Assembly: GCA_964434845.1 (NCBI GenBank)
Contig: CAYSWT010000006.1
Coordinates: 1-38,792, forward strand
DNA: 38,792 nucleotides
Source: an uncultured Atribacterota bacterium
Lineage (GTDB): Bacteria > Atribacterota > Atribacteria > Atribacterales > Atribacteraceae
Reading direction: 5' to 3'
The position numbers and the translations under genes are program-made. A model generated the notes under the pieces. The model had not been told where the DNA came from and made no database searches. It saw only the letters and a list, made by a program, of their open reading frames with translations. This document shows positions 6,963 to 38,323 of the stretch, one piece after another; within the stretch, counting starts at the first letter, position 1; every line of letters begins with the position of its first letter.

Positions 6963-6992
6963 TTGAAACTCGCCATTAGGCGATGCTATAAT
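6963..6992 (+). promoter_or_regulatory. Putative sigma70-type promoter for larBC (TTGAAA -18 bp- TATAAT)
   Basis: ttgaaa at 6963-6968 and tataat at 6987-6992, ~27 nt upstream of the larB start. Confidence 0.35.
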
Positions 6993-7018
6993 AGCATGCA
7001 ATTCAACAATAAAAGAAG

Positions 7019-7780
7019 GTGGTTTGTATATCAATTTTTCAACAAACCCTACAGGACCTTTGGGACCGAAAAATTAATCCGGAGGAAGCCGAAAAACGAC
7101 TCCGACAATTTCCCTATGAAGATATCGGTTTCGCCAAAATCGATCACCATCGTGCCCTCCGCAAGGGTTTCCCTGAAGTTGTTTTTTGTCAAGGAAAAAC
7201 CAATGAACAAATCGTAGATATCCTTAAGAAAATCAGCCGGGAGCATCCGAATTGCCTCGCCACGCGGGTTCAACCGGATACCTATGACTCGGTAAAAAAA
7301 GAATTTCCCGACATCCGTTTTCATCCCAATGCCCGCCTTCTGGTTCTGGAAAGAGAGCCGGTTTCAAAAAAAGGGTCAGTTGCCATCGTCAGCGCCGGTA
7401 CTGCTGATCTTCCGGTCGCCGAAGAGGCTGCTATCACAGCTGATGTTGCCGGGAGTACGGTGAGCAGAATCTACGACGTGGGAATTGCCGGTCTCCACCG
7501 ACTTATCTCGCATTTGAACCAACTCTGGCAAGCCAACGTCATTGTGGCAGTGGCTGGTATGGAAGGAGCTCTTCCCGGCGTTATTTCGGGCATGGTTGGA
7601 CGACCGGTGATCGCCGTCCCAACCAGCATCGGGTATGGTGCCCATTTTCAAGGGTTATCAGCACTCCTAACCATGTTGAATACCTGTTCTCCGGGTATAG
7701 GAGTAGTGAATATTGATAACGGCTTTGGCGCCGGATATCTTGCCCACCTTATCAATCGTTTAGCTGAAGGGGATAAATAA
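7019..7780 (+). CDS. larB: Nickel-pincer cofactor biosynthesis protein LarB (PurE-like P2CMN synthase)
   Basis: GFAKIDHHRALRKGFPEVVFCQGKT N-domain. PurE-like C-domain VAIVSAGTADLPVAEEA…VIVAVAGMEGALPGV…PVIAVPTSIGYG. Start (GTG 7019) is uncertain because the RBS overlaps it. Confidence 0.8.
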   Translation: MVCISIFQQTLQDLWDRKINPEEAEKRLRQFPYEDIGFAKIDHHRALRKGFPEVVFCQGKTNEQIVDILKKISREHPNCLATRVQPDTYDSVKKEFPDIRFHPNARLLVLEREPVSKKGSVAIVSAGTADLPVAEEAAITADVAGSTVSRIYDVGIAGLHRLISHLNQLWQANVIVAVAGMEGALPGVISGMVGRPVIAVPTSIGYGAHFQGLSALLTMLNTCSPGIGVVNIDNGFGAGYLAHLINRLAEGDK

Positions 7781-7784
7781 AACC

Positions 7785-8984: not shown

Positions 8985-8997
8985 AAGGCGATAATCC

Positions 8998-9183
8998 CTA
9001 AGTCTTTTCACATTGACCACCGCATTTTTTTCCACATCTTAAACACGTTAATCCCTGAAGAAGAGTCTCACGTTCTTGGGGAGTGAAAAAGCGGTTAATA
9101 ATTCGTTTATCAAGCAACCATATCTCCATGGGAATATCATTCAGAATGGTGCCTTTTTTGTCATGGTCATCTCTGTTTTTCAT
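8998..9183 (-). CDS. 61-aa cysteine-rich small protein (C-x2-C-x3-C-x3-C at the C-terminus)
   Basis: Start refined to the internal ATG at complement 9183, preceded by GAGGAGG (7-nt spacer). Sequence MKNRDDHDKKGT…LTCLRCGKKCGGQCEKT. Immediately downstream of livF. Confidence 0.5.
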   Translation of the reverse strand: MKNRDDHDKKGTILNDIPMEIWLLDKRIINRFFTPQERETLLQGLTCLRCGKKCGGQCEKT

Positions 9184-9290
9184 GTTATAACCTCCTCTCA
9201 CTATGAAACCAATGAAACCCAGTTCAAAAAAGGTTAAACCATTTATAAATGAAGAATGGATTGAAAAAGGGAAGCGGAGGGGGGACAAAC

Positions 9291-10016
9291 CTAATCTTCA
9301 CCTAAATACGCTTTTCGAACTTTTTCATCAAACAGTAACGCTTTCCCTTCGCCACTCGTAGAGATTCTCCCTGTTTCCATTACATAGGCAAAGTCAGAGA
9401 TTTCTAAAGCACCCCGAGCGTTTTGCTCGATGAGAAGAATAGTTGTTCCTTCTTGATTGATTTTCTCAATAATATGGAAAATTTCTCGAACCAGTAGCGG
9501 TGCTAAACCCAACGAAGGTTCATCCATCATCAACAATTGGGGACGTGACATAAGGGCACGACCCACTGCCAGCATTTGTTGCTCTCCACCACTGAGTGTT
9601 CCCCCTTTTTGCCAGGTTCTTTCTTTCAGTCGCGGAAATATGGTGAAAACCCAATCCATATCTTTTTTAATTTGATCAAAGTCTTTTCGAATATAGCACC
9701 CAAGAATAAGATTTTCCATAACAGTTAAATTAGGAAAAATTCTTCGTCCTTCTGGGACCATGGCAATCCCCATGCCCACAATGAGGTGGGCGGGAAGACC
9801 TGCAATAGGATGCCCATTAAATGTAATTGCCCCCTGTCGGGGATGAATAAGCCCGGAAACAGTTCTCAAAGTGGTACTTTTCCCTGCTCCATTGGCACCA
9901 ATCAGTGATACAATTTTTTTCTTTTCGACATTCAAACTGATTCCCTTCAGGGCATGTATTCCTCCATAATAAACATGAAGATTCTCTATTTTCAGTACGA
10001 TGTGGTCGTTGTTCAT
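9291..10016 (-). CDS. livF: Branched-chain amino acid ABC transporter ATP-binding protein LivF
   Basis: Walker A GANGAGKST. LSGGEQQML signature. 241 aa. Confidence 0.9.
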   Translation of the reverse strand: MNNDHIVLKIENLHVYYGGIHALKGISLNVEKKKIVSLIGANGAGKSTTLRTVSGLIHPRQGAITFNGHPIAGLPAHLIVGMGIAMVPEGRRIFPNLTVMENLILGCYIRKDFDQIKKDMDWVFTIFPRLKERTWQKGGTLSGGEQQMLAVGRALMSRPQLLMMDEPSLGLAPLLVREIFHIIEKINQEGTTILLIEQNARGALEISDFAYVMETGRISTSGEGKALLFDEKVRKAYLGED

Positions 10017-10796
10017 TTAACTTTCCACTCCCAGATAAGCCTCAATAACTTTTGGGTTTTTTCGTATATTACTTGGTGTGCCTTCGGCAATTTTTATCCC
10101 GAAATCCATCACCGCCACATTTTCACAGATCCCCATAACCACCTTCATGTCGTGTTCGATAAGAAAAATGGTCAAGTTGAACTCTTCTCGAATCTTTTGA
10201 ATAAAATTCATAAGATCCATGGTTTCGTGGGGGTTCATCCCTGCTGCTGGTTCATCTAACAACAAAAGTTTTGGATGAATTGCCAAGGCACGGGCAATTT
10301 CTAATCTTCTCTGTTGACCATAGGGAAGACTCTTGGCTTCCTCTCGAGAAAGTTCTGCCAATCCCACAGCTTCGAGCAATCGATATCCCTCTTCTCTCAT
10401 GGCTTTTTCCGCTGAAACATAGGCAGGACTTCTCCACATAGCACCGAGAAAAGAATTTTTTAAACCCATATGAAACGAAACCATGACATTGTCCAATACC
10501 GAAAGGTTTCCAAACAGACGAATATTTTGAAAGGTTCGGGATATACCGAGCGATGTGATCTCATGGGGAGGAAGACCATTGAGAATGTGGTTCAAAAAAA
10601 CGACCTTCCCTTTAGATGGAATATATTGCCCGGTAATCATATTAAAAATGGTGGTTTTTCCAGCGCCATTCGGTCCAATCAAACCCGCCAAATCACCGGA
10701 CTGTAGGGAAAAATTAAAATCATTCACCGCGATCAACCCTCCAAAAATCATGGTAAGTCCGTTTATAGAAAGGAGGGTTTGTGTCTGCTCATTCAT
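10017..10796 (-). CDS. livG: Branched-chain amino acid ABC transporter ATP-binding protein LivG
   Basis: Walker A GPNGAGKTT. LPYGQQRRLEIARAL signature. LivG-type C-terminal extension. Confidence 0.9.
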   Translation of the reverse strand: MNEQTQTLLSINGLTMIFGGLIAVNDFNFSLQSGDLAGLIGPNGAGKTTIFNMITGQYIPSKGKVVFLNHILNGLPPHEITSLGISRTFQNIRLFGNLSVLDNVMVSFHMGLKNSFLGAMWRSPAYVSAEKAMREEGYRLLEAVGLAELSREEAKSLPYGQQRRLEIARALAIHPKLLLLDEPAAGMNPHETMDLMNFIQKIREEFNLTIFLIEHDMKVVMGICENVAVMDFGIKIAEGTPSNIRKNPKVIEAYLGVES

Positions 10797-24163: not shown

Positions 24164-24967
24164 ATGAATATTTTAAAACGGGAGTTATCTCCGATAACCA
24201 ACCAAGCCTGGCAGGAGATTGATCGTCAGGCCAAAAGAATATTCCTCACTCAACTCACCGGACGGCGCTTTGTTGAAGTGATTGGACCAAAAGGGTGGGA
24301 TTTTGCCGCTGTGGGATTAGGGCGAATAAATGTTCCGGAAAACCAACGGGATGGAGACGTTCGTTTTGGAATCCATATGGTTCAACCATTAGTCGAAATT
24401 CGAACCTCTTTTCAACTTGATCTGTGGGAATTGGATAATATTACCCGGGGAGCAACCGATATCGATTTTACTCCTCTGATTGACGCTGCCAAACAAACAG
24501 CTCTATTCGAAGAAAAAGCCATTTATCATGGGTTCGAACCGGGAGATATCGATGGGCTTCTTCCGGTGCTTGAATATGAACCCCTTCCCTTCTCCCATGA
24601 CCCGGGGGAGTTTTTCGGTAGCGTGTTAGAAGCGGTTGCCGTTTTAAACGACGCCTCGGTTACCGGTCCTTATGCTTTGGTGATAAACCCACTTCTCTGG
24701 GCTGATCTAGCGGCAACAAAAAGTGGCTATCCATTAAAGAAACTCATCGAAAGCACGATCGAAGGTCAAATCATTCCGGCATCAGTACTGGAAGATGCAT
24801 TAATCGTGTCAACCCGGGGCGGCGATTTTGAATTGATACTCGGTCATGATCTATCGATCGGATACGAAAGCCATGACGATAAATACGTTAACCTTTATTT
24901 TACAGAATCCTTCACTTTTCGCATCCTCGATCCTTCAGTGTTTGTCCGTTTGAGTGTAAGTGATTAG
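24164..24967 (+). CDS. Family 1 encapsulin nanocompartment shell protein (linocin M18-like, HK97 fold)
   Basis: 267 aa. MNILKRELSPITNQAWQEIDRQAK…TQLTGRRFVEV.GPKGWDFAA…TSFQLDLWELDN…GPYALVINP…GGDFELILGHDLSIGYE is collinear with Thermotoga-type encapsulin. Confidence 0.9.
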   Translation: MNILKRELSPITNQAWQEIDRQAKRIFLTQLTGRRFVEVIGPKGWDFAAVGLGRINVPENQRDGDVRFGIHMVQPLVEIRTSFQLDLWELDNITRGATDIDFTPLIDAAKQTALFEEKAIYHGFEPGDIDGLLPVLEYEPLPFSHDPGEFFGSVLEAVAVLNDASVTGPYALVINPLLWADLAATKSGYPLKKLIESTIEGQIIPASVLEDALIVSTRGGDFELILGHDLSIGYESHDDKYVNLYFTESFTFRILDPSVFVRLSVSD

Positions 24968-24980
24968 GTCAACTGACAAT

Positions 24981-25021
24981 GATCTTCACCTTTCTGGTTT
25001 TGATCCAGAAGGGTGAAGATC
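24981..25021. terminator. Bidirectional intrinsic terminator between convergent encapsulin and dipeptidase genes
   Basis: 10-bp perfect stem gatcttcacc/ggtgaagatc with a structured loop, flanked by T-rich sequence on both strands. Confidence 0.65.
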
Positions 25022-25037
25022 ATTCATGGTTTTCCTC

Positions 25038-26120
25038 TCAGCGAATGGCGTCAAAAGTGAGGTTTAAAATCGGATATTTGTTCCAATCTTTATAATCAAA
25101 ATGCCACCATTCATCCTGGTAAACTTCGAATCCTTCGGCTTCCATAGCCTGACGAAGTATTTCTCGAAACCACCTTTCCCGGGTGGTTCCACCGGGGAAT
25201 GATACATACGAACGTTCGGAAAATTCATCGTAATCGCCACCAAAAAGGATCGGTTCTTTGGTATTCACTTCATACAATGCAACATCCACCGCACATCCTC
25301 GATTATGGCGAGATCCTTTTTGGGAGTCGGCGACAAAGTTTTTCATTTCAGGAGGTGTGGCATCCCAAAACATCTTGGTCACGTACCAGGGGCGATATGC
25401 ATCATGGATGATCAATCCATAACCTATCCGTCTTAATTTCGAATTGACTCGTACCAGAGCTTCGGCGGCTGGACGTTGCAAGAAAGCGCGGTGCTCAGCA
25501 TAGAGAGGCACTCCTATAAAATTATTGTCAGTAGCATAACGGATATCGAGCTGAATGGTAGTATCAAGCCGAATGACTTCTACCAGATCCGGTTCAAGAA
25601 AGGTCCCCTTTTCCACGGGCGGAGTCGCTTGAAGAGCTTCGGGAAGCAATTCGTTAATGGTCTTCAAGGGTTGAATCCGAAAGGTTTCCCCCTTTTCTGG
25701 CCCATAAAAATACCGTCTATATTGAATTTGACCCGCGTTGATTGATATACCAAAATTATCCTTATCTCGGGTAAAACGCATTTTTCTTGCGTTCAATCCA
25801 CTCATAGCGGGTAACAAAAAAGTATCCGACTCCGCTTCTTTCAGCGGAATAATCTCATAAATCACCTCATTGAATAGCACACTTTCTTTATGCTGTCCTT
25901 TATCCACGCAGGGAAACAGCATTTCCAGTCGCCCTTGATTTTCACGTATATAAAATCGGCTTTCATCCTGAAGAATATAAGCCCCGATCAACTTCGTCCA
26001 TTGTGGCGGTTCCGGCGGTGGCGGTTGGAGGTGTTGAGCAACACTGACTTGAAGAGAAAAGAGAACACTCAGAATACAAATGAAGAGAACAATCCGTTGT
26101 TTCAACCTCATGGTATGCAC
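25038..26120 (-). CDS. Secreted D-Ala-D-Ala dipeptidase (peptidase M15D, VanX/DdpX-like) with an unknown ~170-aa N-terminal domain
   Basis: Signal peptide. SRHNRGCAVDV and EWWHFDY zinc-ligand blocks typical of VanX-type dipeptidases. Confidence 0.75.
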   Translation of the reverse strand: MHTMRLKQRIVLFICILSVLFSLQVSVAQHLQPPPPEPPQWTKLIGAYILQDESRFYIRENQGRLEMLFPCVDKGQHKESVLFNEVIYEIIPLKEAESDTFLLPAMSGLNARKMRFTRDKDNFGISINAGQIQYRRYFYGPEKGETFRIQPLKTINELLPEALQATPPVEKGTFLEPDLVEVIRLDTTIQLDIRYATDNNFIGVPLYAEHRAFLQRPAAEALVRVNSKLRRIGYGLIIHDAYRPWYVTKMFWDATPPEMKNFVADSQKGSRHNRGCAVDVALYEVNTKEPILFGGDYDEFSERSYVSFPGGTTRERWFREILRQAMEAEGFEVYQDEWWHFDYKDWNKYPILNLTFDAIR

Positions 26121-26213
26121 CCTTTCAAGTTATTTTCTATGCTGCATTGGCATGTCATCATCACCCTTATTTTAAATCGAATTCCTGATATTGTGCGCAA
26201 CCTGGAATTTAAT

Positions 26214-27269
26214 TTAGAAAACAAACCCAGACGTTAAGTTTTTTCCCTGTACTTCTAAAACAACTTCGCTTTTTTGCTGGGGCTGCAATTCCAAAGTAAA
26301 AATGAGTCGATTCGACTCTATTCGATCCAATGATACCGAATGTGAGATCATTTCAAAACTTGGTTGAAGAGGTACAAAAACTTCGATTTTTTTAACTTCT
26401 GATCCCCGGTTGGCAACAATGTAAAGCTTTTTTTCCTGAGTATCATAAAGAACCACTTGGCCTTTATTATTGTAGACCTGGTTGATCTTATCCTGTTTCA
26501 GTATTTTTTCCTCGACGGTCAGATCGTTACTTTTCCCAATTTCCATTTCCAGATCGGGTGATGTGCCCGAAATGAAGTTTTCGCCTAAAAAAACCACACC
26601 TGAAGTGGATTTTTCAAAATATTCCGATTTGGCAGGAAAGAGGATATAGGTCGGAACGGCGAGTTTCCAGAAAAAATGGACATCAGTATCGCCATAATTG
26701 AATGAAGCGTAACGCGATACTTTCTCAGCGGTGATCACCTGAAATTCCTGAATTTTCAAGCGCTTCGTTTCATAGGGCTCAAGCTGGAGCGTGAATTCCT
26801 TTCCAGCAATCACAAAATTGGCATTGCGAATGACTTCTTGCCCCTGATTGGTAATATCGGCAAAGAGAAAACCTGATGGTGCAGCTTTCTCTTTTTCCCA
26901 GTAGTATTGGTAGAGATAATTCAAAGTGAGTGATGATAAAGGGTAAGTGAAATGAATTCGCCCTTCAGTCGGTGAATCGGCAAGAATGGTCACTGTACTC
27001 CCTCGATCTGAGGAAGGAGTTAAAATGCTATTCAAAACCCCACCTTCGACCTGAATAAATATTTCATCATCGCTTAAGGCGTTCGGTTTTTCCCAGGAAT
27101 AAACATTCTCTCCGGATTGGAGTTGAACCATCCAGGTTTCTCGAAGATAGAATTGGGAATCTCCGGCAAATATCAAAATTTCTTCCGGATTCTTTTCGAG
27201 AATCACTTCTTGGGCGGATGCCCATCTCCAGCAAAAAAAGATCAAGAATATCACCAGGAGTTTTTTCAT
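26214..27269 (-). CDS. Secreted hypothetical protein, DUF4139-like (paralog of the next gene)
   Basis: Start refined to MKKLLVIF (GGGAGGA 6 nt upstream). ATGA overlap with the upstream gene's stop. Signal peptide. Confidence 0.5.
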   Translation of the reverse strand: MKKLLVIFLIFFCWRWASAQEVILEKNPEEILIFAGDSQFYLRETWMVQLQSGENVYSWEKPNALSDDEIFIQVEGGVLNSILTPSSDRGSTVTILADSPTEGRIHFTYPLSSLTLNYLYQYYWEKEKAAPSGFLFADITNQGQEVIRNANFVIAGKEFTLQLEPYETKRLKIQEFQVITAEKVSRYASFNYGDTDVHFFWKLAVPTYILFPAKSEYFEKSTSGVVFLGENFISGTSPDLEMEIGKSNDLTVEEKILKQDKINQVYNNKGQVVLYDTQEKKLYIVANRGSEVKKIEVFVPLQPSFEMISHSVSLDRIESNRLIFTLELQPQQKSEVVLEVQGKNLTSGFVF

Positions 27270-28453
27270 GACCATTCCTCCCGAAATTCATAATTTAATA
27301 AAATAGTTTCCTTTTTCCCCGGGTTGATAGTCATTTTCAAGTGAGCTCGGCCATTTTCCCATTGCCACTGCTCTCCTCCTCCGGTTATTTTCGCCCCCGG
27401 GGGCAATAATTCGATGAAGTCTAATTGTTTATCGGTTTCTCCCCAGTTCTTAATATCAAACTGAATCACCTTCTCCGACCAAAATCCAGCTATATCCCGA
27501 TCTTCATTGAAGTCGACTTTCTTTCGAAGATAACCAGATTCGATTCGATCCACCTGCAGGGTACGAATTGATCCGATGGGAATTTCAAATTCTTCCTGGC
27601 TTCGCACGAGAGGGAATTCAAATGTCCCCACCACCGAATTTTCAGTTCCAAAGATGGTAATCAATCCCTGGGGGAGAGGATCACCCTCGCTTTTCATTTT
27701 CAATATCCGATTGATTGACCCTTCTTCAATGCGGATCAGTTCCTTCACTGGAAACTTTCGTAAACCGGGAAAGACCTGCAGGACGCTCGGACCAGGCAAG
27801 TCTATAACATAAGGTAAATGAAAAACTTGATATTCTGACACTCTTTCCATGATCATCGGTTTTACCTTTTCGACCGCTATTTGGGATTGAACCCGATCGG
27901 AAGCAAGTGGAGCTTCTTCGGTCATCATTCCTCCTTTGTCACCTTCGAAATGAAAAGTAGGCTTCCCTAATAACCAGCTTAAATGGAGATTTTTCCAGGT
28001 AAAATTATGTTGGTTCGAGAGAAAAACTGAGGGATAGAGGTAAAAAAGCTGTTCCTTTTCATCCCAAACCCCCTGATATCTTTCTCTCCAGTCAAAACCA
28101 CTCACGAAAAAGGATATAAGAAAGGGAAACGAACCCGCTTTTTGTGATTCGAGCACCATCAGGTATCCTGAGAAATCGGTGGTGCTGATGGTTTTTAATG
28201 AAGTCGATGGATCGAAAGGATGCAGGTAAAATCTCTCGCGAAGAAGATTCTGTCCGGATAGAAAGAAACGATTTTCCCCATGATTGAGAAGCAGCGCTAC
28301 CTTCTCTACTGCCCAGGCCCGGTCAATATTCTGATAAACCGTGAGCCACACCTCATCGGGCATTATGGTTTGGGAGAGGAGAGCCTGAACCGATCCCGAA
28401 TATCCCAGTGCAATCACCAGGATTATTCCGAAAAAAAGAACAATCCTTCTCAT
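27266..28453 (-). CDS. Secreted hypothetical protein, DUF4139-like
   Basis: Start refined to MRRIVLFF (AAGGAGGTGG 5 nt upstream). Signal peptide. C-terminal G.ITIFGTENSVVGTFEFPLV…IPIGSIRTLQVDRIE pattern. Confidence 0.5.
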   Translation of the reverse strand: MRRIVLFFGIILVIALGYSGSVQALLSQTIMPDEVWLTVYQNIDRAWAVEKVALLLNHGENRFFLSGQNLLRERFYLHPFDPSTSLKTISTTDFSGYLMVLESQKAGSFPFLISFFVSGFDWRERYQGVWDEKEQLFYLYPSVFLSNQHNFTWKNLHLSWLLGKPTFHFEGDKGGMMTEEAPLASDRVQSQIAVEKVKPMIMERVSEYQVFHLPYVIDLPGPSVLQVFPGLRKFPVKELIRIEEGSINRILKMKSEGDPLPQGLITIFGTENSVVGTFEFPLVRSQEEFEIPIGSIRTLQVDRIESGYLRKKVDFNEDRDIAGFWSEKVIQFDIKNWGETDKQLDFIELLPPGAKITGGGEQWQWENGRAHLKMTINPGKKETILLNYEFREEWS

Positions 28454-28509
28454 TTTTCCACCTCCTTGCTGAAACATTAATTCTCCACCATTAAGATGAT
28501 CCTCAATAT

Positions 28510-28585
28510 GGATCGACCGCCATGCTGCTTGGCAGCACCATGTGAGGAATGAAAATCAAATGAGCCACATGCCATGGCATGTGGC
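28510..28585 (+). repeat. Copy 4 of the structured repeat family, plus a 22-nt perfect palindrome
   Basis: GGATCGACCGCCATGC-TGCTTGGCAGC-ACCATGTGAGGAATGAAAATC, then GCCACATGCCATGGCATGTGGC (28564-28585). Confidence 0.75.
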
Positions 28586-28804
28586 CCGTTACTTGTTACT
28601 GTAATTAATAATAGTGTGAAACTTTGAAGCTAAAAATTCAAGTCCTATTCCCCCTCCTTATTGGTGATTGATAACTATTTTACCCGAATATGATCGTTCC
28701 TACCATCCCCTGGTGAATGGAACAGTGATACGGGTAAATCCTTTTTAGCGATTTTCAAGATAAACACTCCTTATTTTTAGTATTTTCAGTGGGAAATGAA
28801 TATA

Positions 28805-29335
28805 CTACTTGGCCACCACTGGTTGTGTGACTTTCATGATTTTCCCGCCATCAGTTGATTCAACGGCAGTACCAACCAAATTTTCTCCAGAAGTGGGAAC
28901 TTTTTTGCTTATTCCCGCTGGTTGCACTTTGGGGTCAAACCAAACTTCAGCAATTAAATTTTGAGTTTCGGGGAATGAAGAAACCGAAAGCGTCGCTGTG
29001 AAACAGGCATTGCTGATTTCAACGGTTTTCTCTTTTATGATTGCCTGTTCGGCATTGTCACCTCCATTGGTAACCAATACCTTCAATTTGCCCCCAGCAG
29101 GCAGATCGGTTTCACCCATCACCATAACCTTGCCGTTTTCTATAAAGGCTTTGGTGATCAGTAATTTCTGATATATTTCCAGGTCTTTTGAGGAGTCACT
29201 CTTTTTTTTGGCCGAATCTTGATCCTGACAACAGGGTGGAAGCTTGGTCTGCTTTTCCAAACCGAACAGACTGGTGGTTGCAACCAGAACAACGAGCATG
29301 AATACCAAAATGAATAGAAATGGTAATTTTTTCAT
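28805..29335 (-). CDS. Secreted or membrane-anchored hypothetical protein with Cys-Cys motif
   Basis: N-terminal hydrophobic segment. PPCCQDQD shortly after it. No recognised domain. Part of the copper locus. Confidence 0.45.
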   Translation of the reverse strand: MKKLPFLFILVFMLVVLVATTSLFGLEKQTKLPPCCQDQDSAKKKSDSSKDLEIYQKLLITKAFIENGKVMVMGETDLPAGGKLKVLVTNGGDNAEQAIIKEKTVEISNACFTATLSVSSFPETQNLIAEVWFDPKVQPAGISKKVPTSGENLVGTAVESTDGGKIMKVTQPVVAK

Positions 29336-29375
29336 AATGTGTTTCCTTCCCCCGGCGATTTTAATTAAGCCGGAT

Positions 29376-30767
29376 TTAATTTACGACTTCGATCGAGCCG
29401 GTAATCATTCCCATCCAGCAGCTAAATTTAAATTTACCGGCTACCTGTGGGGTAAACTCCATTACACTGGTTTTTCCATGAGAAAGTCCGATTTGTTTTG
29501 GAAAAAAATCTTTAGCAATAATGGCATTGGTGCAGCCACTGGTTCCGACATCTGTGACTTCCCAACGGACCGGAATCCCCTTTTTGACTGTAAATGAATT
29601 GGGTATATATCCACGCGCCGATGCTTCCATTTTTATTAATTGCGTTCCTTCGATCATAGGTTCAACGGTCATGGCCAGATTCGCGTTCGATTTTCCCGAT
29701 ACAGCTGTGGGATTCAAAACAAGATCGTCCAAACTTGGCAGACCCATAACATTCAATTGTGAATTGACGTTAAATAAGACAAAAAATATTACCACCATAC
29801 CGGCTATTTTTAAAAAAGTGTTTGCGTAACGAGGCTTTTCCAAAAATCGGAGACTGGAAATGCCAATGCTCAACAGTGGGGGAAGAGTACCCAGAGCAAA
29901 ACAGAAGAGAAGCAGTGAACCCTGAAGAAAACTCCCGGAAAGGAGAGCCAAACCCTGGACGGTTATGGTAAAACCACAGGGAAGAAAAAAGGTCAGTGCT
30001 CCCATCACCAGCGGCATATAACGACCCCGGAAGCGACTTTCATCCACCAGATAACGTGTCATAAAACGGGGTAAGGTAACCCGGAAACCTTGTAAACGCT
30101 TTACTCCTAACATTTGAAGACCCAACATCGCCATGAGGACTGAAACCATGATGACCAAAATCGAGGAAAAACGCAATGAAAGTGAAAACTGCCTTCCTAT
30201 CAATCCCAGTACACCTCCGCCCCCGGCAAAGGCAAGTAATCGTCCAACATTAAAAAGAAAGTGGGGTTCCATTTTTTTGAGAGGAGTATCCCGGTGAGAG
30301 TACAAATCATTCCATTGTTTGGCGAGGGAAAGGACCAATCCCCCAACCAGCGCCGCGCAGCTGGATACGCCGGCTATGAGACCAAATAGAAAAAAAGTGA
30401 TCAGTGAGGATGTGGAATCAACCGAGACAAATTGAGTAAAGCCGGTTCTTTCGAGGAGGAGGAAAGCAACAATCACCATGATGGCAAAACCCAAAGTCAG
30501 TAACCGGTTTTTTTTCTCGTTCTCGAAAGACCGCTCGGAAAAACGATACCCATCATCCTGAAAGAGATTGTTTAGCTGTTCAAGGTCGGGGTAAGTGTCT
30601 TCACTTTTGAGCACAACCTTCCCATCCTTTACTGAAGCATCGGCATAAACGATTCCTTGGCATTGTAGTAATTTTTTCTCGATAAAAATTTCACAGGCCG
30701 GACAATGCATCCCCTGGACATAATACGCCTTTGACTTCGCTGAAAACGTGGGTTTTTTCACTGACAA
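29376..30767 (-). CDS. Fusion protein: N-terminal HMA metal-binding domain, polytopic Cys-containing membrane domain (DsbD_2/CcdA-like), C-terminal cupredoxin-like domain
   Basis: GMHCPAC HMA motif. About 6 TM helices with SSCAAL and LPCGF cysteines. C-terminal …PVRWEVTDVGTSGCTNAI…GKFKFSCWMGMITGSIEV resembles cupredoxin_1-type domains. Confidence 0.6.
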   Translation of the reverse strand: MSVKKPTFSAKSKAYYVQGMHCPACEIFIEKKLLQCQGIVYADASVKDGKVVLKSEDTYPDLEQLNNLFQDDGYRFSERSFENEKKNRLLTLGFAIMVIVAFLLLERTGFTQFVSVDSTSSLITFFLFGLIAGVSSCAALVGGLVLSLAKQWNDLYSHRDTPLKKMEPHFLFNVGRLLAFAGGGGVLGLIGRQFSLSLRFSSILVIMVSVLMAMLGLQMLGVKRLQGFRVTLPRFMTRYLVDESRFRGRYMPLVMGALTFFLPCGFTITVQGLALLSGSFLQGSLLLFCFALGTLPPLLSIGISSLRFLEKPRYANTFLKIAGMVVIFFVLFNVNSQLNVMGLPSLDDLVLNPTAVSGKSNANLAMTVEPMIEGTQLIKMEASARGYIPNSFTVKKGIPVRWEVTDVGTSGCTNAIIAKDFFPKQIGLSHGKTSVMEFTPQVAGKFKFSCWMGMITGSIEVVN

Positions 30768-30776
30768 ACCACCCCA

Positions 30777-31262
30777 TTATTGATCGGCTTTAAAAAAGAG
30801 CATGAGGTTTTCCAGATCGTTTTGAAAAAGAATGATCTTCCCGTCTCTGACTTCAAGCTGTTCGCTGATGGGCACCGGATTACAATTCCCTTTTCCAGTC
30901 GCAATTTTATTTAGCGGATAAGAATTGCCACAAACATTACAAATGATCAGATCCTTTTCTTGATGAAAACCTTCTTGGGCTGGATAACACAGTTGGCAGG
31001 CATTGGCTGCAGCCCGGAAATTCCCTTTTTGATCCTTCACTATAAAAAAATAGATTGTCAATCCCGAGTATAAAGTGGCATGAAAAAAATGTATTGTATC
31101 ATCTACAAAGATCTCTGTGGAAAGTGTAATTTCACCATTCATAATCGATACATTTTGCCCCTTCTGTCCAAGGAACAATTCGTCCGATTCCGCTGATACA
31201 AATGGAATCATGATCAATAGCACTACTAAAGTCCATCCTATATACCTGGTTGGGAGCTGCAC
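30777..31262 (-). CDS. Membrane-anchored protein with CxxC-x16-CxxC motif (DUF2318-like)
   Basis: Signal/anchor segment. ACQLCYPA…CNVCGNSY. Family assignment is tentative. Confidence 0.4.
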   Translation of the reverse strand: MQLPTRYIGWTLVVLLIMIPFVSAESDELFLGQKGQNVSIMNGEITLSTEIFVDDTIHFFHATLYSGLTIYFFIVKDQKGNFRAAANACQLCYPAQEGFHQEKDLIICNVCGNSYPLNKIATGKGNCNPVPISEQLEVRDGKIILFQNDLENLMLFFKADQ

Positions 31263-31438
31263 CGAATATTCCTCCTCTAATCCTTTTTGAATTTTTGACT
31301 CTCTTGGGTATTATACGTGAAAATAATTGTATAGTATACTGATATAGTAAGTATTTATTAACCTTCAGTTTATCTCCACTATTTCTGTTTTCTTGACTTA
31401 TTCTTTATATACTATTAATATTAGTATCATAGTAATCT
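31263..31438. promoter_or_regulatory. AT-rich divergent promoter region of the copper locus with candidate operator palindromes
   Basis: 8-bp palindrome AGTATACT (~31331-31338). ATACTA-n7-TAGTAT (~31411-31429) just upstream of the copA RBS. Confidence 0.3.
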
Positions 31439-34400
31439 TTGAAGGGTGGGATTCCGATGAAGAAAAAAATTATACTTCAAATAGATGGTATGACCTGTCC
31501 CAGTTGTGAAAAGATCGTCACTCAAACCCTCCAGGAGCTTCCGGGAACAGCTGAAATCACCATCAGTAAAGATGAAAGTCGAGGAATTTTAAAGATCGAT
31601 CCGGCTCAAGTATCTCTATCAAAAATCATTACTGCTATCGAGGAAGTCGGATATCATGCCCATCTCATAAACGAAACCGACCTGACCGAAGATTACCAAG
31701 GAAACCAAGCCCCTTCTCTACCGATTTGCCCTTTTGTTTCCGCCAAAGATGGAAAAAAGACCATGAAAAGTGAAACTGAATCAAACCAAAATCAGCGGGT
31801 CACATTTTCTCTCTCAGGTATGCATTGCGCTTCCTGTGCGGCTCTCATCGAGCGGTCACTCACCAAAACCCCGGGGGTGGTGCGGGCAACAGTGAACTTT
31901 GCCGCTGAGAAAGCAACCGTATTTTTTGACGGAGCGTCGACCAGCCCGGCAGAGCTCATCGAAGCCGTCCAAAAAGCAGGTTATAATGCCCAGGTTATCA
32001 CCTCTGCTGATCGGGAAAAAGAAAATCGCCGCAAGCAGGCAGACATCGCTGCCCAATGGCGAACCTTCCTTATCAGCCTCTTTTTGAGTCTTCCCATGAT
32101 GTACTTTATGCTCTTGGACTTCTTCAAATGGCTCCCTGGCGCCTATAGTTTTCCTCCCTATTTCGGAATTCTGTCTTTCATTTTGGCTACCCCGGTTCAA
32201 TTCGTCATCGGGTTTCGCTTCTACCAGGGAATGTGGTCAAGCTTACGGATGAAAACATTTAACATGGATAGCCTCATCGCCATCGGTACCACTGTTGCCT
32301 ACGGTTATAGCCTCATTCACTATATCAGCCATATACTGGCCAACAGCAGCGTATTAGGGTTATTTGGCCGTAAGGTCCCCGAGCTGTACTTTGAAACCTC
32401 GGCTTTTCTGATCACTTTTGTCATATTAGGAAAATACTTGGAAGCCCATGCCAAAGGGCGAACCTCGGATGCCATTCAGAAATTGTTAAAACTCAAGGCT
32501 AAAACTGCCCGGGTACGACGAAACGGTGCGATTATTGATATTCCGGTTGAAAAAGTCGAAAAAGGAGATATGATCATCGTCCGTCCCGGAGAGAAAATTC
32601 CGGTCGATGGTGAGATCATTACTGGAAACTCATCGGTCGATGAATCGATGATCACCGGGGAAAGCATCCCGGTAGAAAAGGGACCGGGCGATACTGTCAT
32701 CGGAGCTACTATGAATATTGTAGGAAGTTTCGAGTTTATTGCCACCCGGGTGGGATCGGAAACTATGCTCGCCCAGATCGTTCAGCTCATCGAGGACGCT
32801 CAGAGTTCCAAAGCACCAATTCAAGCTTTCGCCGATCGGATCGCTGCCTGGTTTGTACCCTCAGTGCTGGCCATTGCTGGTGGAACTTTCATCGTCTGGT
32901 ATTTTATCCTTGGCTCGACCCTCACCTATTCATTAATGGCTATGACGTCAGTTATCGTCATCGCTTGTCCCTGCGCACTCGGGTTGGCAACTCCAACCGC
33001 GATTATGGTCGGTACCGGTAAGGGGGCTGAACACGGTATCCTGGTTAAAGGAGGAGAACCACTGGAAGCAGCCCGCACTATCAACACTGTCGTCTTCGAT
33101 AAAACTGGAACAGTGACCAACGGGAAACCGGTGGTGACCGATGTTGTCTCGTTTGGAAATCTCTCATCGGATATGATATTACAGATTGCCGGAAGTCTGG
33201 AAAAGTTATCCGAACACCCCCTCGCTCAATCTATCTATCAAAATGCTCAAGAAAAAAATCTATCTTTAAACGAGGTAGATCATTTCCATGCCCTCCCGGG
33301 ACGGGGAGTCGAAGGCAAAATCAATGGCCAGCATTATACGATTGGTAACCGAAAGCTTTTATCTGAACACCAACTTCCGGTTTCTGAATTCGTCGAACAA
33401 AACATCTCCAACTTAGAAGAACAGGGGAAAACAGTAATGATTCTTGCTGACCCCAATTCACTTCTCGGAGCAGTTGCCGTTGCCGACACTCCCAAGGAAA
33501 CATCCAAAAAAGCAATTGATCAATTAAAAAAGCTGGGTATGACCTTGTTTATGATAACCGGCGACAATCAGCGTACTGCCCGTGCTGTCGCCCGCGAAGT
33601 CGGTATTTCAGAGGTCCTGGCTGAAGTACTCCCCGAAGAGAAGTCGAAGGAAATAAAAAAACTCCAACAAAGCGGGAAAAAAGTTGCTATGGTTGGTGAC
33701 GGCATCAACGATGCACCGGCGATCGCTCAAGCCGATCTTGGAATCGCCATGGGATCGGGAACCGACGTGGCCATGGAAACTGGAGACATCATTCTGGTTA
33801 AAAACAACCTCGGTGACGTAGCAACCGCGTTGGAACTCTCTCGAGAAACCATGGGGAAAATAAAACAAAATCTCTTTTTTGCGCTTTTTTATAACTTGAT
33901 CGGTATTCCCATTGCCGCCCGAGCCTTTGCTACTTTCGGACTGCTGCTCAACCCCGAATTAGCCGGTCTGGCCATGGCTTTGAGCTCAATTTCGGTGGTT
34001 TCCAATTCTCTCCTGCTGCGCACTTTTCGTCCCCGTCGAAAAAACTATCTCTCCATGGCAGCTCCTCTCATCATGATCCTTTTGTTTACCTGGATGTTCG
34101 TCGGTTTTGCCCGCTTCAGTTCCATTATGGGGACGGTGATGACACAGCTTCCTCCAGAGATAAATCAGGCGTTTGAAAAATTCCTGAACAACGGACAGGC
34201 GATGGTGACTTTTTCATCTACCGGAATACCAAAACTATTCTTTACCTCCGATTCGTTGAAAAGCCCAATGCTATTGGTTCAAAAGGGCTTATTTCCACCC
34301 GAAAAAGATGAAATGCTTCTTGGAGCTTCCGAAGCTACCATGATGATTCAGGAAAAACTGTTTCAAAACCCGGGTGACTCTATTCCAAATTTTTTTGGCA

Positions 34401-34825
34401 TTCCCTTGATGAGAGTGGTTGGCATCTTGAAACCGACTGGGACTATTCTGGATATGTTTCACTTTATCACTCCGGAAACATCCAAGAGCATTTCCGGATC
34501 GTCTAAGTTGACCATCGGTTTCGCCAAAGGAACTCCAAAATTGTTCTATACCCTTGAAAAGAACACCATTCCCGCCTTGCTCCAACCTTTTATCTCAAAG
34601 GATGCGCTCCAATCGGTAATTCTAAATGGGAAAACCCATCTTCCACTCATACTTGGATACAATGAGGGTCAGATGATGATTTCTGAAAAGCTTTTAAAAA
34701 ACGCTGGAGATATCCTTCCTGACTTCTTTGGTCAAGACGTGGTTGTTGCCAAAATTCTTCCCAAAACCAACACTTTGTTCGATGAATTTCATTTTGTAAC
34801 CAAGGAGTTTGTGGTGAAAAAATAA
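31439..34825 (+). CDS. copA: Cu(I)-translocating P1B-type ATPase (CopA-like) with two N-terminal HMA domains, an extra C-terminal TM helix and a novel tandem-duplicated ~110-aa C-terminal domain
   Basis: GMTCPSCE and GMHCASCA motifs. CPC ([12 protein letters not shown]). [13 protein letters not shown]. After the canonical end (…[12 protein letters not shown]) an additional helix [21 protein letters not shown]. Then two homologous units (…GIPKLFFT…[20 protein letters not shown]…DMFHFITPE and …GTPKLFYT…[20 protein letters not shown]…DEFHFVTKE). Confidence 0.85.
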
Positions 34826-35114: not shown

Positions 35115-36245
35115 TCAATGTATTTTCTTCCGGAAAATTCTTCTTCGCTTATGTTGACGAGGCTCGAAGTGTTTCCATTCGTTCTGGATTTTCTTATTGG
35201 TTTCTAATTCCGGATTGGATTCACTATACGAAAATCCAAATTTCATGGCGGTTTTAGTGATTTCATACACCATGAGAATATCCACTCCTTTATTCCGGTA
35301 CTCTTTTTTTACCCCTGCCAGGTAGAAATCAAGAATGTGATAGGTTTTCAAAGCTTTCAATAGATACCAAAAACCAAAAGGAAAGAGTTTCCCTCGGGCT
35401 TTTTGCAAGGCTTGAGAAAAACTGGGCATGGTTATCATAAAACCTATCATTTCATTGTTTTCGTTGGCCACTGCTTTAATAAAATCGGTTTGAATATAGG
35501 GGAGATATTTTTTTATATAGTAGTTTTTTTGCTTTTCAGTGAGGGGAACTGTCCCATAAAGATCTGCATAGGATTCATCGATGAGGTTAATTAATTCCAT
35601 CCCTCTTTTAAGAACTTCTTTTTTGGTTTTGAATTCTATAAGGTGAAATCTATACCGTTTTTTAACCCATTCCGCCGATTTTTCTAGATTCTCAGGAATC
35701 CCCTTTTCATAGGGAACCAACGTTTGGAATTCTAAGGAATCGATAAATTTTTCATAACCGCACTTTTCAACTAAATCTGGGTAATAGGGATAATTATAGA
35801 TGGTGGCCATAGTTCCTAACTCGTTGAACCCCTCAATCAACATGCCAGCTGGATCCAGGTCGGTAAATCCCTGAGGACCAGTACAGGTCGTCATCCCTTG
35901 CTGTCTCCCCCACTCCTCAACCGCCGAAAAAAGCAATTGAGCACTTTTGAGATCATTTACGGTATCAAACCATCCGAATCGAATATTCTTTTCCTGATAC
36001 TTTTCATTGGCGATATGACTGATAATTCCCGCAATTCGTCCCACACACCTCCCTTGGTGGAAAACCAGAAACAACTTCGTTTCACAGTTTTCGTAGGCTG
36101 GGTTTTTGGCATGAGAAAAAATGGCGATTTCATCCCGAATCAGAGGAGGAATGTAATAAGGATGGTCCCGATAAAGACGGTGAGGATACGTCACAAATTC
36201 TTTCAGTTGATTCGTGGTTTTTACTTCTTTAATTTCCCAATTCAA
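35115..36245 (-). CDS. Two-domain GNAT-fold acyltransferase-like protein (FemAB/acyl-CoA N-acyltransferase-like)
   Basis: 376 aa. Weak resemblance to the duplicated GNAT fold. Low-confidence family call. Confidence 0.35.
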   Translation of the reverse strand: MNWEIKEVKTTNQLKEFVTYPHRLYRDHPYYIPPLIRDEIAIFSHAKNPAYENCETKLFLVFHQGRCVGRIAGIISHIANEKYQEKNIRFGWFDTVNDLKSAQLLFSAVEEWGRQQGMTTCTGPQGFTDLDPAGMLIEGFNELGTMATIYNYPYYPDLVEKCGYEKFIDSLEFQTLVPYEKGIPENLEKSAEWVKKRYRFHLIEFKTKKEVLKRGMELINLIDESYADLYGTVPLTEKQKNYYIKKYLPYIQTDFIKAVANENNEMIGFMITMPSFSQALQKARGKLFPFGFWYLLKALKTYHILDFYLAGVKKEYRNKGVDILMVYEITKTAMKFGFSYSESNPELETNKKIQNEWKHFEPRQHKRRRIFRKKIH

Positions 36246-36304
36246 TGAATTAGAGTCCTTTTATTTGATTATAGGTTTTTTCATGGGCATATTCCATGTT
36301 GCGT

Positions 36305-36844
36305 TTATTCAATAAACACCGCTGAATACCAATTTTGTGGTTCGTCTTCGTTTTTCAAGGTTTCGAGCGGGAGACCGAATTTTCTGACGGTTTTATAAAC
36401 ATCTATGCCTACACTATGGAACGCCGGACGGGCTTGTTTGGGATTGACACATTCCTTACCTTTGAACCCAGCACACTCCTTACAGAGAGCGCAATCACTT
36501 AATGAAAAAGCAAAATAATAGCCATCCAGGAATGCCTGCCGCTCAATAGCAAAGGAAATTTTTTGAGATTGTACTTTATCGGTGGAATGAATAATAATTC
36601 CCCAGGAATATTGTCTAAAAATTTTTTTATATTCCCAGGGTTTCAGTGACCCCGACCGTGAGGGACAGGTGTTCCCTTTCCCCCAATCGTTACATCCAAA
36701 CATGCATTTCAAAATGGTGCGTGGATCAAATTTGATATCTTTCACCTGGAAGAGGACAGCGTGATCAGCGCCCATATTCAATGCTAAATCGAGATAGGTT
36801 TTATTAAAATTATTTATCAAAGAATTTTCCATTGTGTATTTCAA
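36305..36844 (-). CDS. DUF2284-family predicted metal-binding protein
   Basis: CMFGCNDWGKGNTCP and CALCKECAG cysteine clusters characteristic of the family. 179 aa. Confidence 0.55.
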   Translation of the reverse strand: MKYTMENSLINNFNKTYLDLALNMGADHAVLFQVKDIKFDPRTILKCMFGCNDWGKGNTCPSRSGSLKPWEYKKIFRQYSWGIIIHSTDKVQSQKISFAIERQAFLDGYYFAFSLSDCALCKECAGFKGKECVNPKQARPAFHSVGIDVYKTVRKFGLPLETLKNEDEPQNWYSAVFIE

Positions 36845-36965
36845 ACACTCGGTATCAGTTTTAATAAATTAAATACTATAACAGATTAATGAATATTATC
36901 AATATCTTAAAACTGGAAACAAACCCTCAACCGTTCGTTTGAACACAAAATAAGGGGGTTGATAT

Positions 36966-37340
36966 TTGATAGGATTCACTTACAATGAAATAAAAAAAGA
37001 ATCATTGGATAATCACATGGTAAAAAATTTAACCCATCACCCGGTAGTTATTTATAAAAACGGATCGGTTTTTCTGATTATAGAGCCAGAAGGTCCTGTC
37101 CCCCGTTGCAAGGAGGAACGCGTTCAAATCGGAGAAATTGATGGAATACCATTCACGAACACCCGCTTCGGAATAGTCCAAGATCTTCCAGAAAAAAAAG
37201 AAGGAGTGTTTTTAATTGTCTCACCAATCGTTGCCAACGCACTTCCTAAAAGAGATGATCTGCTGGTGCCTGATGATCTGGTGAGAGACGACCAAGGGAA
37301 TATCATCGGTTGTCGGGCACTAGCTCGAGTAAGCTGGTAG
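36966..37340 (+). CDS. Hypothetical protein
   Basis: ORF of 124 aa (may start at the internal MVKNL). No recognised motif. Confidence 0.35.
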   Translation: MIGFTYNEIKKESLDNHMVKNLTHHPVVIYKNGSVFLIIEPEGPVPRCKEERVQIGEIDGIPFTNTRFGIVQDLPEKKEGVFLIVSPIVANALPKRDDLLVPDDLVRDDQGNIIGCRALARVSW

Positions 37341-37369
37341 GGATGTGAAAAGTTCTCTTGGTAAAAAAA

Positions 37370-38323
37370 TCAATCCAGTTGTTTTTTTAAATATCGTAAT
37401 GATTCACGCATCATCCTCTCGAGCAGATTGTCAGTATAATCTCTCCCCAACTTAGGTCCGGGAAGCTCCAAATAACCAATCACCGGAGAAACCGGGATGA
37501 TATCCTGATTGTCCAAAAGCAGTGTGTGGATTTTTTTCACATCGACAATACCTCGGTCAAGGTTTTCCGATTCAAATCCAAAAGTGTCATTATAGATCTT
37601 ATCAGTATTTTTAAAATGAAATTCATACATATAAGGGAAAGAAGCAGTGAAGTAGTGCATATTATTCTCAATGATCTCTTTCTTTTCATTCACCCATCCA
37701 TGGGAAACATCCGAACAATACCCGAATTGAGTTGTACTTTCTGGATGGGAATGGTGATGTTCTACCAATTCGTCGGCGATCATTTTTAATTCTGTTGTGT
37801 TGCAAGGAGGTTCGGCATAACACGACATCGGCTCCATGGTAAGCCAGGATAAACCATGCTCTTTCGCATAATACATCATCTCTTTCATGCCTTCAATATA
37901 GGCTTGTATCCCCTGACTCCGAAACTCGAGACGATCGCGTAAAACACCACCCATCGATGAACCGGCAGCCGGACATCTCAATATCTGAGCAATTTCTATC
38001 AAACGCCGGTAATTCTTAATCGTGATTTGGGAAAATTCAGGATCTTCAGTCATAAAACCACCAAGTTCTCGATGAGAAGTAAAAATACTGGATATTTGAA
38101 TACTCCTGGAATCTGCCGCTTCTTTCAAGCGTAAAAAATAGGAATCGGATAGAAAATAAAACTCGACAAAAGTTCCTAATTGGAGATAATGAATGCGTTC
38201 TTCCGCCATGAGGTCGAACAACCATTCAAATGAATACCGGTAATGAATGGGATCGCTTTTTACTCCTAACTCAACAATTAGATTTTTATTGGATCGTGAA
38301 CGGCTATTATTCATCGGTATCAT
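37370..38323 (-). CDS. Xylose isomerase-like TIM-barrel protein (sugar phosphate isomerase/epimerase family)
   Basis: 317 aa. Conserved His/Glu/Asp pattern (…WLTMEP…, …HHHSHPE…, …SDVSHGW…) consistent with the AP-endonuclease-2/xylose-isomerase-like fold. Confidence 0.55.
   Translation of the reverse strand: MIPMNNSRSRSNKNLIVELGVKSDPIHYRYSFEWLFDLMAEERIHYLQLGTFVEFYFLSDSYFLRLKEAADSRSIQISSIFTSHRELGGFMTEDPEFSQITIKNYRRLIEIAQILRCPAAGSSMGGVLRDRLEFRSQGIQAYIEGMKEMMYYAKEHGLSWLTMEPMSCYAEPPCNTTELKMIADELVEHHHSHPESTTQFGYCSDVSHGWVNEKKEIIENNMHYFTASFPYMYEFHFKNTDKIYNDTFGFESENLDRGIVDVKKIHTLLLDNQDIIPVSPVIGYLELPGPKLGRDYTDNLLERMMRESLRYLKKQLD

Follow-up and report, generated by a model that had tools for sequence, protein, structure and literature searches.

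A conserved C-terminal module with a ninth transmembrane helix, predicted to face outside the cytoplasm, in a P1B-1 copper ATPase of an uncultured Atribacterota bacterium

Introduction

The copper-transporting P1B-1 ATPases of the CopA type, as exemplified by Escherichia coli CopA and by the structures 3j09 and 3rfu, are built of two HMA domains and a core of eight transmembrane helices, and they carry the signature motifs CPC, YN, MxxSS, DKTGT, TGES and GDGxND. In the Legionella pneumophila CopA structures, the pathway by which Cu(I) is released is lined by the helices MA, M2 and M6. The known CopAs end a few residues past M6, in the cytoplasm, and expose only short loops on the outer side (PMC7558416). 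Here we describe a gene that extends this architecture, located in a stretch of 38,792 nucleotides from an uncultured Atribacterota bacterium (GenBank assembly GCA_964434845.1, contig CAYSWT010000006.1, positions 1 to 38,792; hereafter the window, meaning the whole stretch of DNA that was analysed). Located at 31457..34825 (+), the pump gene has as its product a P1B ATPase of the Cu(I) type, 1122 residues long, which shares with CopA the HMA domains, the eight-helix core and all of the signature motifs and adds a ninth transmembrane helix and a tandem domain of about 235 residues predicted to lie outside the cytoplasm. An original prediction, made from the sequence of this stretch, had pointed to the C-terminal part as a novel duplicated domain, and the present analysis follows it up.

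How Cu(I) exits from the pump and is transferred to the next carrier is understood in part only. The periplasmic carrier CusF has the fold of an OB-like barrel. Its Cu(I) site consists of one His and two Met residues, and CopA was reported to pass Cu(I) to CusF directly and not in free form (PMC7558416). The common picture of a P1B pump is an enzyme of eight helices that exposes hardly anything on the outer side, and accessory subunits of these pumps are absent from reviews (PMC10654040; PMC7558416), one of which, from 2023, lists accessory subunits for the P1A, P2A, P2C and P4A pumps and none for P1B (PMC10654040). Our full-text searches of the literature turned up no P1B pump for which an accessory subunit, a ninth helix, or a domain that is periplasmic, outside-facing or MacB-like had been described.

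A different group of membrane machines also enters into the comparison. MacB, LolCDE and FtsEX couple ATP-binding cassette (ABC) motors to mechanical work outside the membrane, and in LolC and FtsX it is the Sabre or extracellular domain that serves as the binding site of LolA and of EnvC/PcsB, respectively. The periplasmic domain of MacB is composed of two subdomains, the Porter, which is made of two separated beta-alpha-beta motifs connected to the stalk helices and was described as the intrinsic mechanotransmission element, and the contiguous Sabre of about 119 residues (PMC5985334).

Results

A complete P1B-1 pump core is followed by an added C-terminal part

The open reading frame at 31439..34825 (+) is uninterrupted and encodes 1128 residues if its first TTG is used, and residue numbers given here follow this numbering, from TTG 31439, unless stated otherwise. 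The public gene calls, available for 17 contigs, start at ATG 31457 and give 1122 residues; a purine-rich, Shine-Dalgarno-like stretch, GGGTGGGA, lies immediately 5′ of this ATG. At the N-terminus there are two cytoplasmic HMA metal-binding domains with a CxxC in each (31469..31984, +; residues about 11-73 and 122-182), which were found as two stretches in the Pfam scan of the pump protein (E = 5e-31) and as CopZ-type NCBIfam matches at residues 11-73 and 122-187.

The HMA domains are followed by a canonical eight-helix P1B-1 core (32036..34036, +; residues about 200-866), as delineated by the motif scan, the alignments to CopA structures and TIGR01511. The same Pfam scan placed E1-E2_ATPase at residues 352-532 and the Hydrolase (HAD) domain at 548-766; the NCBIfam CopA model covers residues 7-866, and the copper-translocating model TIGR01511 scored 632 bits against a cut-off of 397 (E = 1e-189). 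Residues 5-717 of the 723 in Archaeoglobus fulgidus CopA (3j09) align to 122-866 of the pump, and residues 115-732 of the 736 in L. pneumophila CopA (3rfu) to 243-861; the core was also aligned to the CopA structure 7si3, and the end-to-end CopA alignments have E values of 1e-165 to 1e-188. All P1B-1 signature motifs are present, comprising, in the 1122-residue numbering, the catalytic motifs TGES (400), DKTGTVT (548), SEHP (585) and GDGIND (747) and the Cu(I) selectivity motifs CPC in M4 (504), N..YN..P in M5 (805) and M..SS in M6 (840). Judged from its sequence, the product of the gene is therefore a P1B-1 ATPase of the Cu(I)/Ag(I) type with no part missing, for which ATP-driven export of Cu(I) is predicted.

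Since the core alignments stop at residues 861-866, the canonical pump ends at segment 858-869, which is where the original prediction had placed its end (completeness by about residue 860), and the extra transmembrane helix that it had announced indeed follows at residues 871-891. The protein thus does not have the eight-helix topology with a cytoplasmic end after M6, and is a P1B-1 copper pump that departs from its class in this one defining feature and carries an added module. We hold with high confidence that its identity and architecture are those of a P1B-1 pump with a ninth helix and a tandem outside domain.

The added part is fused to the pump at many related loci

The original prediction had allowed for a frameshift-generated fusion, and the extension proved to be real, in frame and conserved. 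The identical protein of 1122 residues was found, with the same neighbours, on 17 contigs that had been assembled independently from different samples, and six of six members of its 90%-identity cluster have this same length. Among more distant relatives, the fragments P0001-P0003 (38-62% identity) show the tandem domain in frame with the extra helix and, before it, the final helix of the pump, and the genome contigs L003-L009 have open frames, 984-1236 codons long, in which a complete pump with CPC, DKTGT and GDGxND continues into the tail. A survey of loci, made by tblastn with the pump core and the tail of the window protein as queries together with genome and metagenome scans, gave 93 family loci, comprising 38 with fused frames, 40 with stand-alone modules and 15-16 in which the frame of the module is cut by a contig end; the fused frames share 26-62% identity, come from several phyla and have strongly conserved motifs.

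Separate genes had appeared to be present at six loci interrupted by TGA (L011, L073-L075, L089 and L090). This was rejected, as the organisms use genetic code 25, and intact fusions of 1006-1021 residues result when TGA is read as a sense codon. Genetic code 25 makes the carriers appear split or odd in standard annotations; P0029, a further code-25 carrier, was translated with Trp in place of Gly (WDWIND instead of GDGIND).

On the sequence data, it is exceedingly improbable that the fusion is an artefact, be it a frameshift, an assembly chimera or the decaying remnant of a downstream gene. Such a reading could appeal to the in-frame stops within the second unit of the closest genome match (L002), but it is at odds with the 17 independent contigs, the full-length members of the cluster and the conservation of 38 fused frames across phyla; a frameshift or chimera was rejected on the first two of these grounds.

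A ninth helix should place a tandem domain outside the cytoplasm

Between M6 and the extra helix lies a very short, basic cytoplasmic linker, RPRRKNY (34028..34048, +), of about 8-10 residues in the window protein. The ninth transmembrane helix (34049..34111, +; residues 871-891), whose predicted direction is from the cytoplasm outwards, ranks among the most hydrophobic stretches of the protein (Kyte-Doolittle value of 2.13 over 19 residues), appears in the AlphaFold model as a single long helix of residues 871-898, and is seen in every fused relative. It leads into a poorly conserved stalk or linker (34112..34189, +; residues 892-917) that was modelled at low confidence (predicted local distance difference test scores of 44-70) with one short helix at 906-917. 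Then follow the two units of the tandem domain, unit 1 at 34190..34477 (+; residues 918-1013) and unit 2 at 34493..34807 (+; residues 1019-1123), and the protein ends about five residues past unit 2; the predicted outside domain spans residues 892-1128.

The distribution of charges around the helix follows the positive-inside pattern in both the 44 fused and the 42 stand-alone sequences. In the fused relatives, the 12 residues before the helix contain on average 3.36 Lys or Arg, against 1.09 in the 12 residues after it, and in the stand-alone proteins the means are 2.43 before the anchor helix and about 1.0 after it. Moreover, the structural relatives of the module are all extracytoplasmic domains, the stand-alone relatives are built of a short N-terminus, one transmembrane helix and the domain, and M6 of the pump ends in the cytoplasm. 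From these observations it is predicted that the ninth helix should put the tail domain outside the cytoplasm, in agreement with the side of the membrane originally proposed for it.

The duplication is likewise borne out. Unit 1 and unit 2 align with a Smith-Waterman score of 147 (z = 23) and about 37% identity over the aligned positions, while 2000 shuffles gave a mean of 28.7, a standard deviation of 5.1 and a maximum of 56; in a self-BLAST of the tail the identity match alone was returned, and it is by Smith-Waterman with shuffles that the repeat becomes visible. The motif blocks by which the two homologous units had first been noticed are at their places, namely G(I/T)PKLF(F/Y)T at residues 929 and 1031, (T/Q)MMI(Q/S)EKL at 967 and 1078, and D(M/E)FHF(I/V)T(P/K)E at 1005 and 1115.

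Each unit resembles the Sabre subdomain of MacB-type permeases

Scans of the tail with Pfam and NCBIfam gave nothing usable: the window tail has no Pfam match at E <= 1, neither FtsX nor any other Pfam family was detected in it, and Pfam-A (2025) and NCBIfam release 20 hold no model of the module. In the Foldseek search its structural relatives ranked first, with E of about 0.01 and a probability of up to 0.98, and the fold is taken to be that of the Sabre-type alpha/beta subdomain. By predicted secondary structure, each unit forms one contiguous segment with a single main helix, with no pair of beta-alpha-beta motifs flanking the units, and the Porter-only FtsX domains were not among the matches of the fold search; each unit is therefore read as Sabre-like, and we infer a remote homology between it and the Sabre-type subdomain in the periplasmic domain of MacB/LolC (type VII ABC) permeases. 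The motif pattern of the module, G..(l)A..L...GD.i..f.G....V.Gil..t....D., is like that of the Sabre of MacB, LolC, LolE, YknZ, YbbP and HrtB.

Sequence comparisons pointed in the same direction. MacB_PCD (PF12704) is the most frequent Pfam match of the stand-alone members, being found, below threshold, in 12 of 54 with a best E of 7e-6. The family consensus matches positions 119-193 of the 207 in this profile (E = 5.7e-5, 23.9 bits), and unit 2 of P0054 matches positions 123-175; as these are the same region of the profile, both units appear to be copies of one MacB_PCD segment. A weak tblastn match to an FtsX-type permease of Isosphaeraceae (L012) is consistent with the MacB link; among the loci retrieved, FtsX-type permeases numbered only two, too small a set for a profile-profile comparison. 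The units probably descend from the MacB/FtsX permease family.

The module is, however, not a member of that family. Like the MacB_PCD proteins, it has a transmembrane helix followed by an outside domain, but it lacks the FtsX four-helix bundle with an inserted domain, a second transmembrane helix after the domain, an evident Porter and an ABC ATPase partner, none of the last being found by Pfam in the ten open reading frames flanking the gene (24164-30767 and 35115-38323), and its Pfam matches are sub-threshold. It further differs from MacB-type proteins in the tandem duplication of the Sabre-like unit, in the family-specific invariant M-M and D-x-x-H and in its partner, which is a P-type pump. 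The claim of a novel domain needs correction: the fold is a known one, a remote and duplicated relative of the MacB/LolC Sabre, and the family is a separate, copper-pump-specific offshoot of it. The opposite outcome considered in the original prediction, that of a known domain with an unrelated function, applies by half for the same reason, the fold being known and the family tied to copper pumps. The new part is a conserved copper-pump accessory module with a recognisable evolutionary origin.

This origin invites the reading that the MacB-derived domain receives the E1/E2 movements of M6 by way of the ninth helix and would do mechanical work outside, for example by expelling copper or activating a partner. 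The very short linker to M6 and the descent from the part of MacB-type permeases that consists of the first transmembrane helix and the periplasmic domain would suit such a transmission, and in an hhalign comparison of the family with one LolC-like permease (L002) the N-terminal transmembrane region of the stand-alone proteins, and this region alone, aligned to the first transmembrane helix, at negligible probability. However, the absence of an evident Porter weakens this reading, each unit with its single main helix matching one contiguous subdomain; the stand-alone forms have no covalent coupling to M6, and no genes for an adaptor or an exit duct occur nearby. We therefore regard mechanotransmission as improbable.

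The module forms a rare family in two architectures

Among 1.84 billion cluster representatives, an ectodomain profile retrieved 195 proteins at E <= 0.001, 173 of them at E <= 1e-10, so that the family is rare. Two architectures cover nearly all of the 195, the C-terminal fusion to a P1B ATPase, as in P0029 (1125 residues), P0030 (1013) and P0064 (988), and the stand-alone protein of 245-280 residues, which has a short Lys-rich N-terminus, one transmembrane helix and two units and is labelled 'hypothetical protein' in databases. Stand-alone tail proteins, for which the original prediction had proposed to search, therefore do exist, and they are encoded beside P1B ATPase genes. The longer, odd members are mostly ATPase fragments, with P0114 (an extra C-terminal domain) and P0090 (a low-complexity tail) as exceptions. 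The labelled genomes with the fusion belong mostly to Patescibacteria (Woesebacteria, Falkowbacteria and Gracilibacteria, the last with genetic code 25), and the closest labelled relative of the window protein, at 61% identity, is from an Atribacteria metagenome-assembled genome.

P0114, a fused fragment of 638 residues, has degenerate units and, beyond them, a beta-rich C-terminal extension of about 250 residues with His/Met motifs (…FGHAVIVRQDDRSTVMHTHPM…) and no Pfam match. This extension might represent a further metal-binding domain on the outer side.

Methionine, histidine and acidic residues are conserved in both units

Conservation was computed over 151 unique ectodomain sequences. In unit 1 the conserved residues are G962, E965, A966, M968, M969, E972, G979, D980, F986, G987, G995, L997, T1000, D1005 and H1008, and in unit 2 they are G1073, E1076, M1079, M1080, G1090, D1091, F1097, G1098, T1110, D1115 and H1118; A1077, conserved in the family, is replaced by Gly in the window protein. 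In the main helix of unit 1, E965 is conserved in 95% of the sequences, A966 in 87%, M968 in 85%, M969 in 96% and E972 in 87%, and in that of unit 2 the figures are 93% for E1076, 73% for M1079 and 95% for M1080. The helix carries a near-invariant E-A-x-M-M-x-x-E pattern in each unit. The D-x-x-H motif is nearly invariant in both (D1005 99% and H1008 93%; D1115 98% and H1118 89%), and in unit 2 of the stand-alone forms it often reads D-M-M-H. Glycines and hydrophobic positions are conserved as well, and Cys makes up 0.0% of the family ectodomains.

The module accompanies P1B pumps and copper-related genes

In 77 of the 77 loci that could be assessed, the module is fused to a P1B ATPase or directly adjacent to one on the same strand, being fused in 32 (38 after correction for code 25), encoded just downstream in 28 and just upstream in 17; the alignment used in the locus search was the closer 11-sequence subset of the 54 sequences. 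At one locus (L014), an HMA protein, an HMA-DsbD_2 protein and an ArsR-type regulator precede the module and the ATPase, the last two genes sharing a 4-nucleotide overlap. At another (L022), an HMA membrane protein is followed by the ATPase (5812-7989), the stand-alone module (7986-8783), again with an overlap of 4 nucleotides, and directly thereafter three consecutive Cupredoxin_1 genes of 154, 139 and 149 residues (8790-10268). Across the 45 non-redundant loci of at least 8 kb, Cupredoxin_1-like frames lie within 8 kb in 40, and a DsbD_2 membrane part is present in 25. Since only two arrangements occur, fusion or a single-pass neighbour with often overlapping stop and start codons, the module, a distinct and rare family, is read as a dedicated accessory part of the pumps, a role that we consider very probable.

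The exclusively copper-related gene context also bears on whether the module is a docking site for a non-copper partner, for instance a lipoprotein, an enzyme of the cell wall or the surface of a host cell. The Sabre subdomains were suggested to have been adapted to different tasks in different proteins (PMC5985334), and many carriers are episymbiotic Patescibacteria, both of which would fit such a role. Against it, the module is found only with P1B pumps and copper-related neighbours (HMA, DsbD_2, Cupredoxin_1 and the ArsR-type regulator), and genes of the cell wall or of lipoprotein trafficking are not consistently linked to it; a docking function thus has little probability.

In the window itself, a two-gene unit (29376..31262, -) diverges from the pump gene and encodes, by Pfam, an FtrD-like membrane protein (PF10080; 30777..31262, -) and an HMA-DsbD_2-Cupredoxin_1 fusion protein (29376..30767, -). 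These divergent neighbours are kept on the independent contigs. At the majority of the related loci, a homologue of the DsbD_2/cupredoxin protein is again encoded beside the module, which suggests a conserved extracytoplasmic copper system of three parts.

In the promoter region that the pump gene shares with the divergent FtrD-like/DsbD_2 operon, a repeat search found the palindrome ATACTATTA-A-TATTAGTAT at 31409..31427, between a promoter-like TTGACT at 31393 and the start of the ATPase gene. It may be a candidate operator of a metalloregulator, and its membership in the copper system is uncertain; no regulator gene was identified within the window. A half-site matching the palindrome, ATAGTATA, lies 69 nucleotides upstream, at 31331-31338.

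About 6.5 kb upstream of the copper genes there is a gene for an encapsulin shell protein (24164-24967, +; Linocin_M18, E = 1e-85). Three sizeable open reading frames of 352, 402 and 375 residues (26214-28477, -, and 35115-36245, -), which adjoin the copper genes, have no Pfam match at E <= 0.001. No tRNA genes were found in the window.

Discussion

Based on these findings, we propose that the module could act as an acceptor of Cu(I) at the exit side of the pump to which it is fused or coupled. First, the short linker would force the anchor helix to pack beside M6, and as M6 lines the release pathway, the domain should sit over the outer exit. The conserved Met and His residues, possibly with carboxylates, would form Cu(I) sites in each unit, and these sites would take up Cu(I) as the pump releases the metal. 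From there, Cu(I) would either be relayed to cupredoxin-like domains that are encoded alongside and lie outside the cytoplasm, or be let go in a controlled manner. Such a mechanism would be, by analogy, the built-in equivalent of the hand-off from CopA to CusF. It is favoured because periplasmic Cu(I) carriers likewise bind the metal through Met and His and do without Cys, and because cupredoxin-like neighbours are near-constant. The original prediction had suggested a built-in Cu acceptor or gating domain, an idea that would fit the conserved Met, His, Asp and Glu residues, the lack of Cys and the cupredoxin neighbours. As an account of the whole, a pump with an accessory module that serves in exit-side acceptance and hand-off of Cu(I) is our best explanation, which we regard as evenly balanced between being right and being wrong; its most specific element, the direct binding and transfer of Cu(I) by the module, is put forward tentatively, with somewhat less confidence than the account as a whole.

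The comparison with known carriers and subunits helps to define what is proposed. Like CusF, CopC and the N-terminus of CusB, the module is proposed to accept Cu(I) at the outer face of the pump through Met and His residues without Cys, its binding being predicted. Unlike CusF and CopC, which are soluble, it is tethered to the membrane or fused, and its fold is unrelated to theirs. In its build, it resembles the beta subunit of the Na,K-ATPase, KdpC and Cdc50, which are likewise single-pass proteins with an extracytoplasmic domain that serve one dedicated pump (PMC10654040), and the module, too, is sometimes encoded by a separate gene. There is no homology to any of them, and the window protein has the module and the catalytic subunit in one chain.

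This resemblance gives rise to another reading, that the module binds no metal and is a structural or regulatory partner of the beta-subunit kind, which stabilises, folds or tunes the pump, for instance by capping or gating its exit. The topology would be that of a P2C beta subunit, a type II single-pass protein with an outside domain; without exception, the module is part of the pump or encoded next to it; no metalloproteins are among its structural relatives; and P1A, P2C and P4A pumps are known to have accessory subunits with a domain on the outside (PMC10654040). However, near-invariant Met-Met, His and Asp residues in both units, with no Cys at all, would be unusual for a purely structural domain, and the constant cupredoxin neighbours indicate a metal pathway outside the membrane. 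We therefore consider a purely structural or regulatory partner, although the main alternative, rather unlikely.

Several observations weigh against exit-side Cu(I) acceptance by a duplicated, MacB-derived module. The E-A-x-M-M helix corresponds to the generic 'lA..L' packing helix of MacB_PCD, and therefore part of its conservation may be structural. The set of candidate ligands was drawn from sequence conservation and not from spatial clustering, the folds of CusF and CopC were not among the structural matches, and the MacB-type relatives that were matched are no metal binders. As for the origin, the sequence link to MacB_PCD is sub-threshold, the 23.9 bits of the consensus lying below the gathering cut-off of 27 bits, and when PDB sequences were searched with a profile of the stand-alone family, nothing but a chance match to a capsid protein (E = 0.79) came back. 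As for the duplication, unit 2 of the closest genome match (L002) is in frame and interrupted by two stops (TAA and TAG), and a fused pump at another locus (L010; 7823-10534, about 900 residues in an open frame of 903 codons) has one unit only. The second unit can therefore be lost, and a version of the module with a single unit exists.

Both loci have further features. L002 is in the Atribacteria metagenome-assembled genome contig JAGPGC010000068.1, with the interrupted unit 2 at 843-960, and its stops reflect either the decay of this unit or errors in an assembly of 6x coverage; an ABC ATPase and a LolC/FtsX-type permease are encoded just downstream on the other strand. At L010 the pump gene is followed directly by an unrelated AAA-type gene.

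Taken in its fullest form, exit-side acceptance of Cu(I) would make the module the first dedicated outside-facing accessory of P1B pumps, a fused or separate 'beta subunit' derived from the first transmembrane helix and Sabre of a MacB-type protein, which captures Cu(I) on Met and His residues and relays it to cupredoxin-like proteins. This complete picture is offered as a possibility, and with more reserve than the binding and hand-off of Cu(I) taken alone. In the more general sense, the module may be the first known outside-facing accessory part of copper pumps.

In conclusion, a module that is fused or translationally coupled to its pump provides a natural system with a fixed exit-side partner, suited to structural work on copper release, and opens the hand-off at the exit of copper pumps to direct tests. 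A name can now be given to some 195 clusters so far labelled 'hypothetical proteins' or over-long 'CopA' genes, of which those derived from genomes are mainly of Patescibacteria. The reuse of a periplasmic piece of MacB/LolC outside the ABC transporters is an unexpected evolutionary link between two superfamilies of pumps. If the proposed mechanism is true, a P-type pump and a MacB-derived domain would together form one machine for the export and delivery of copper.

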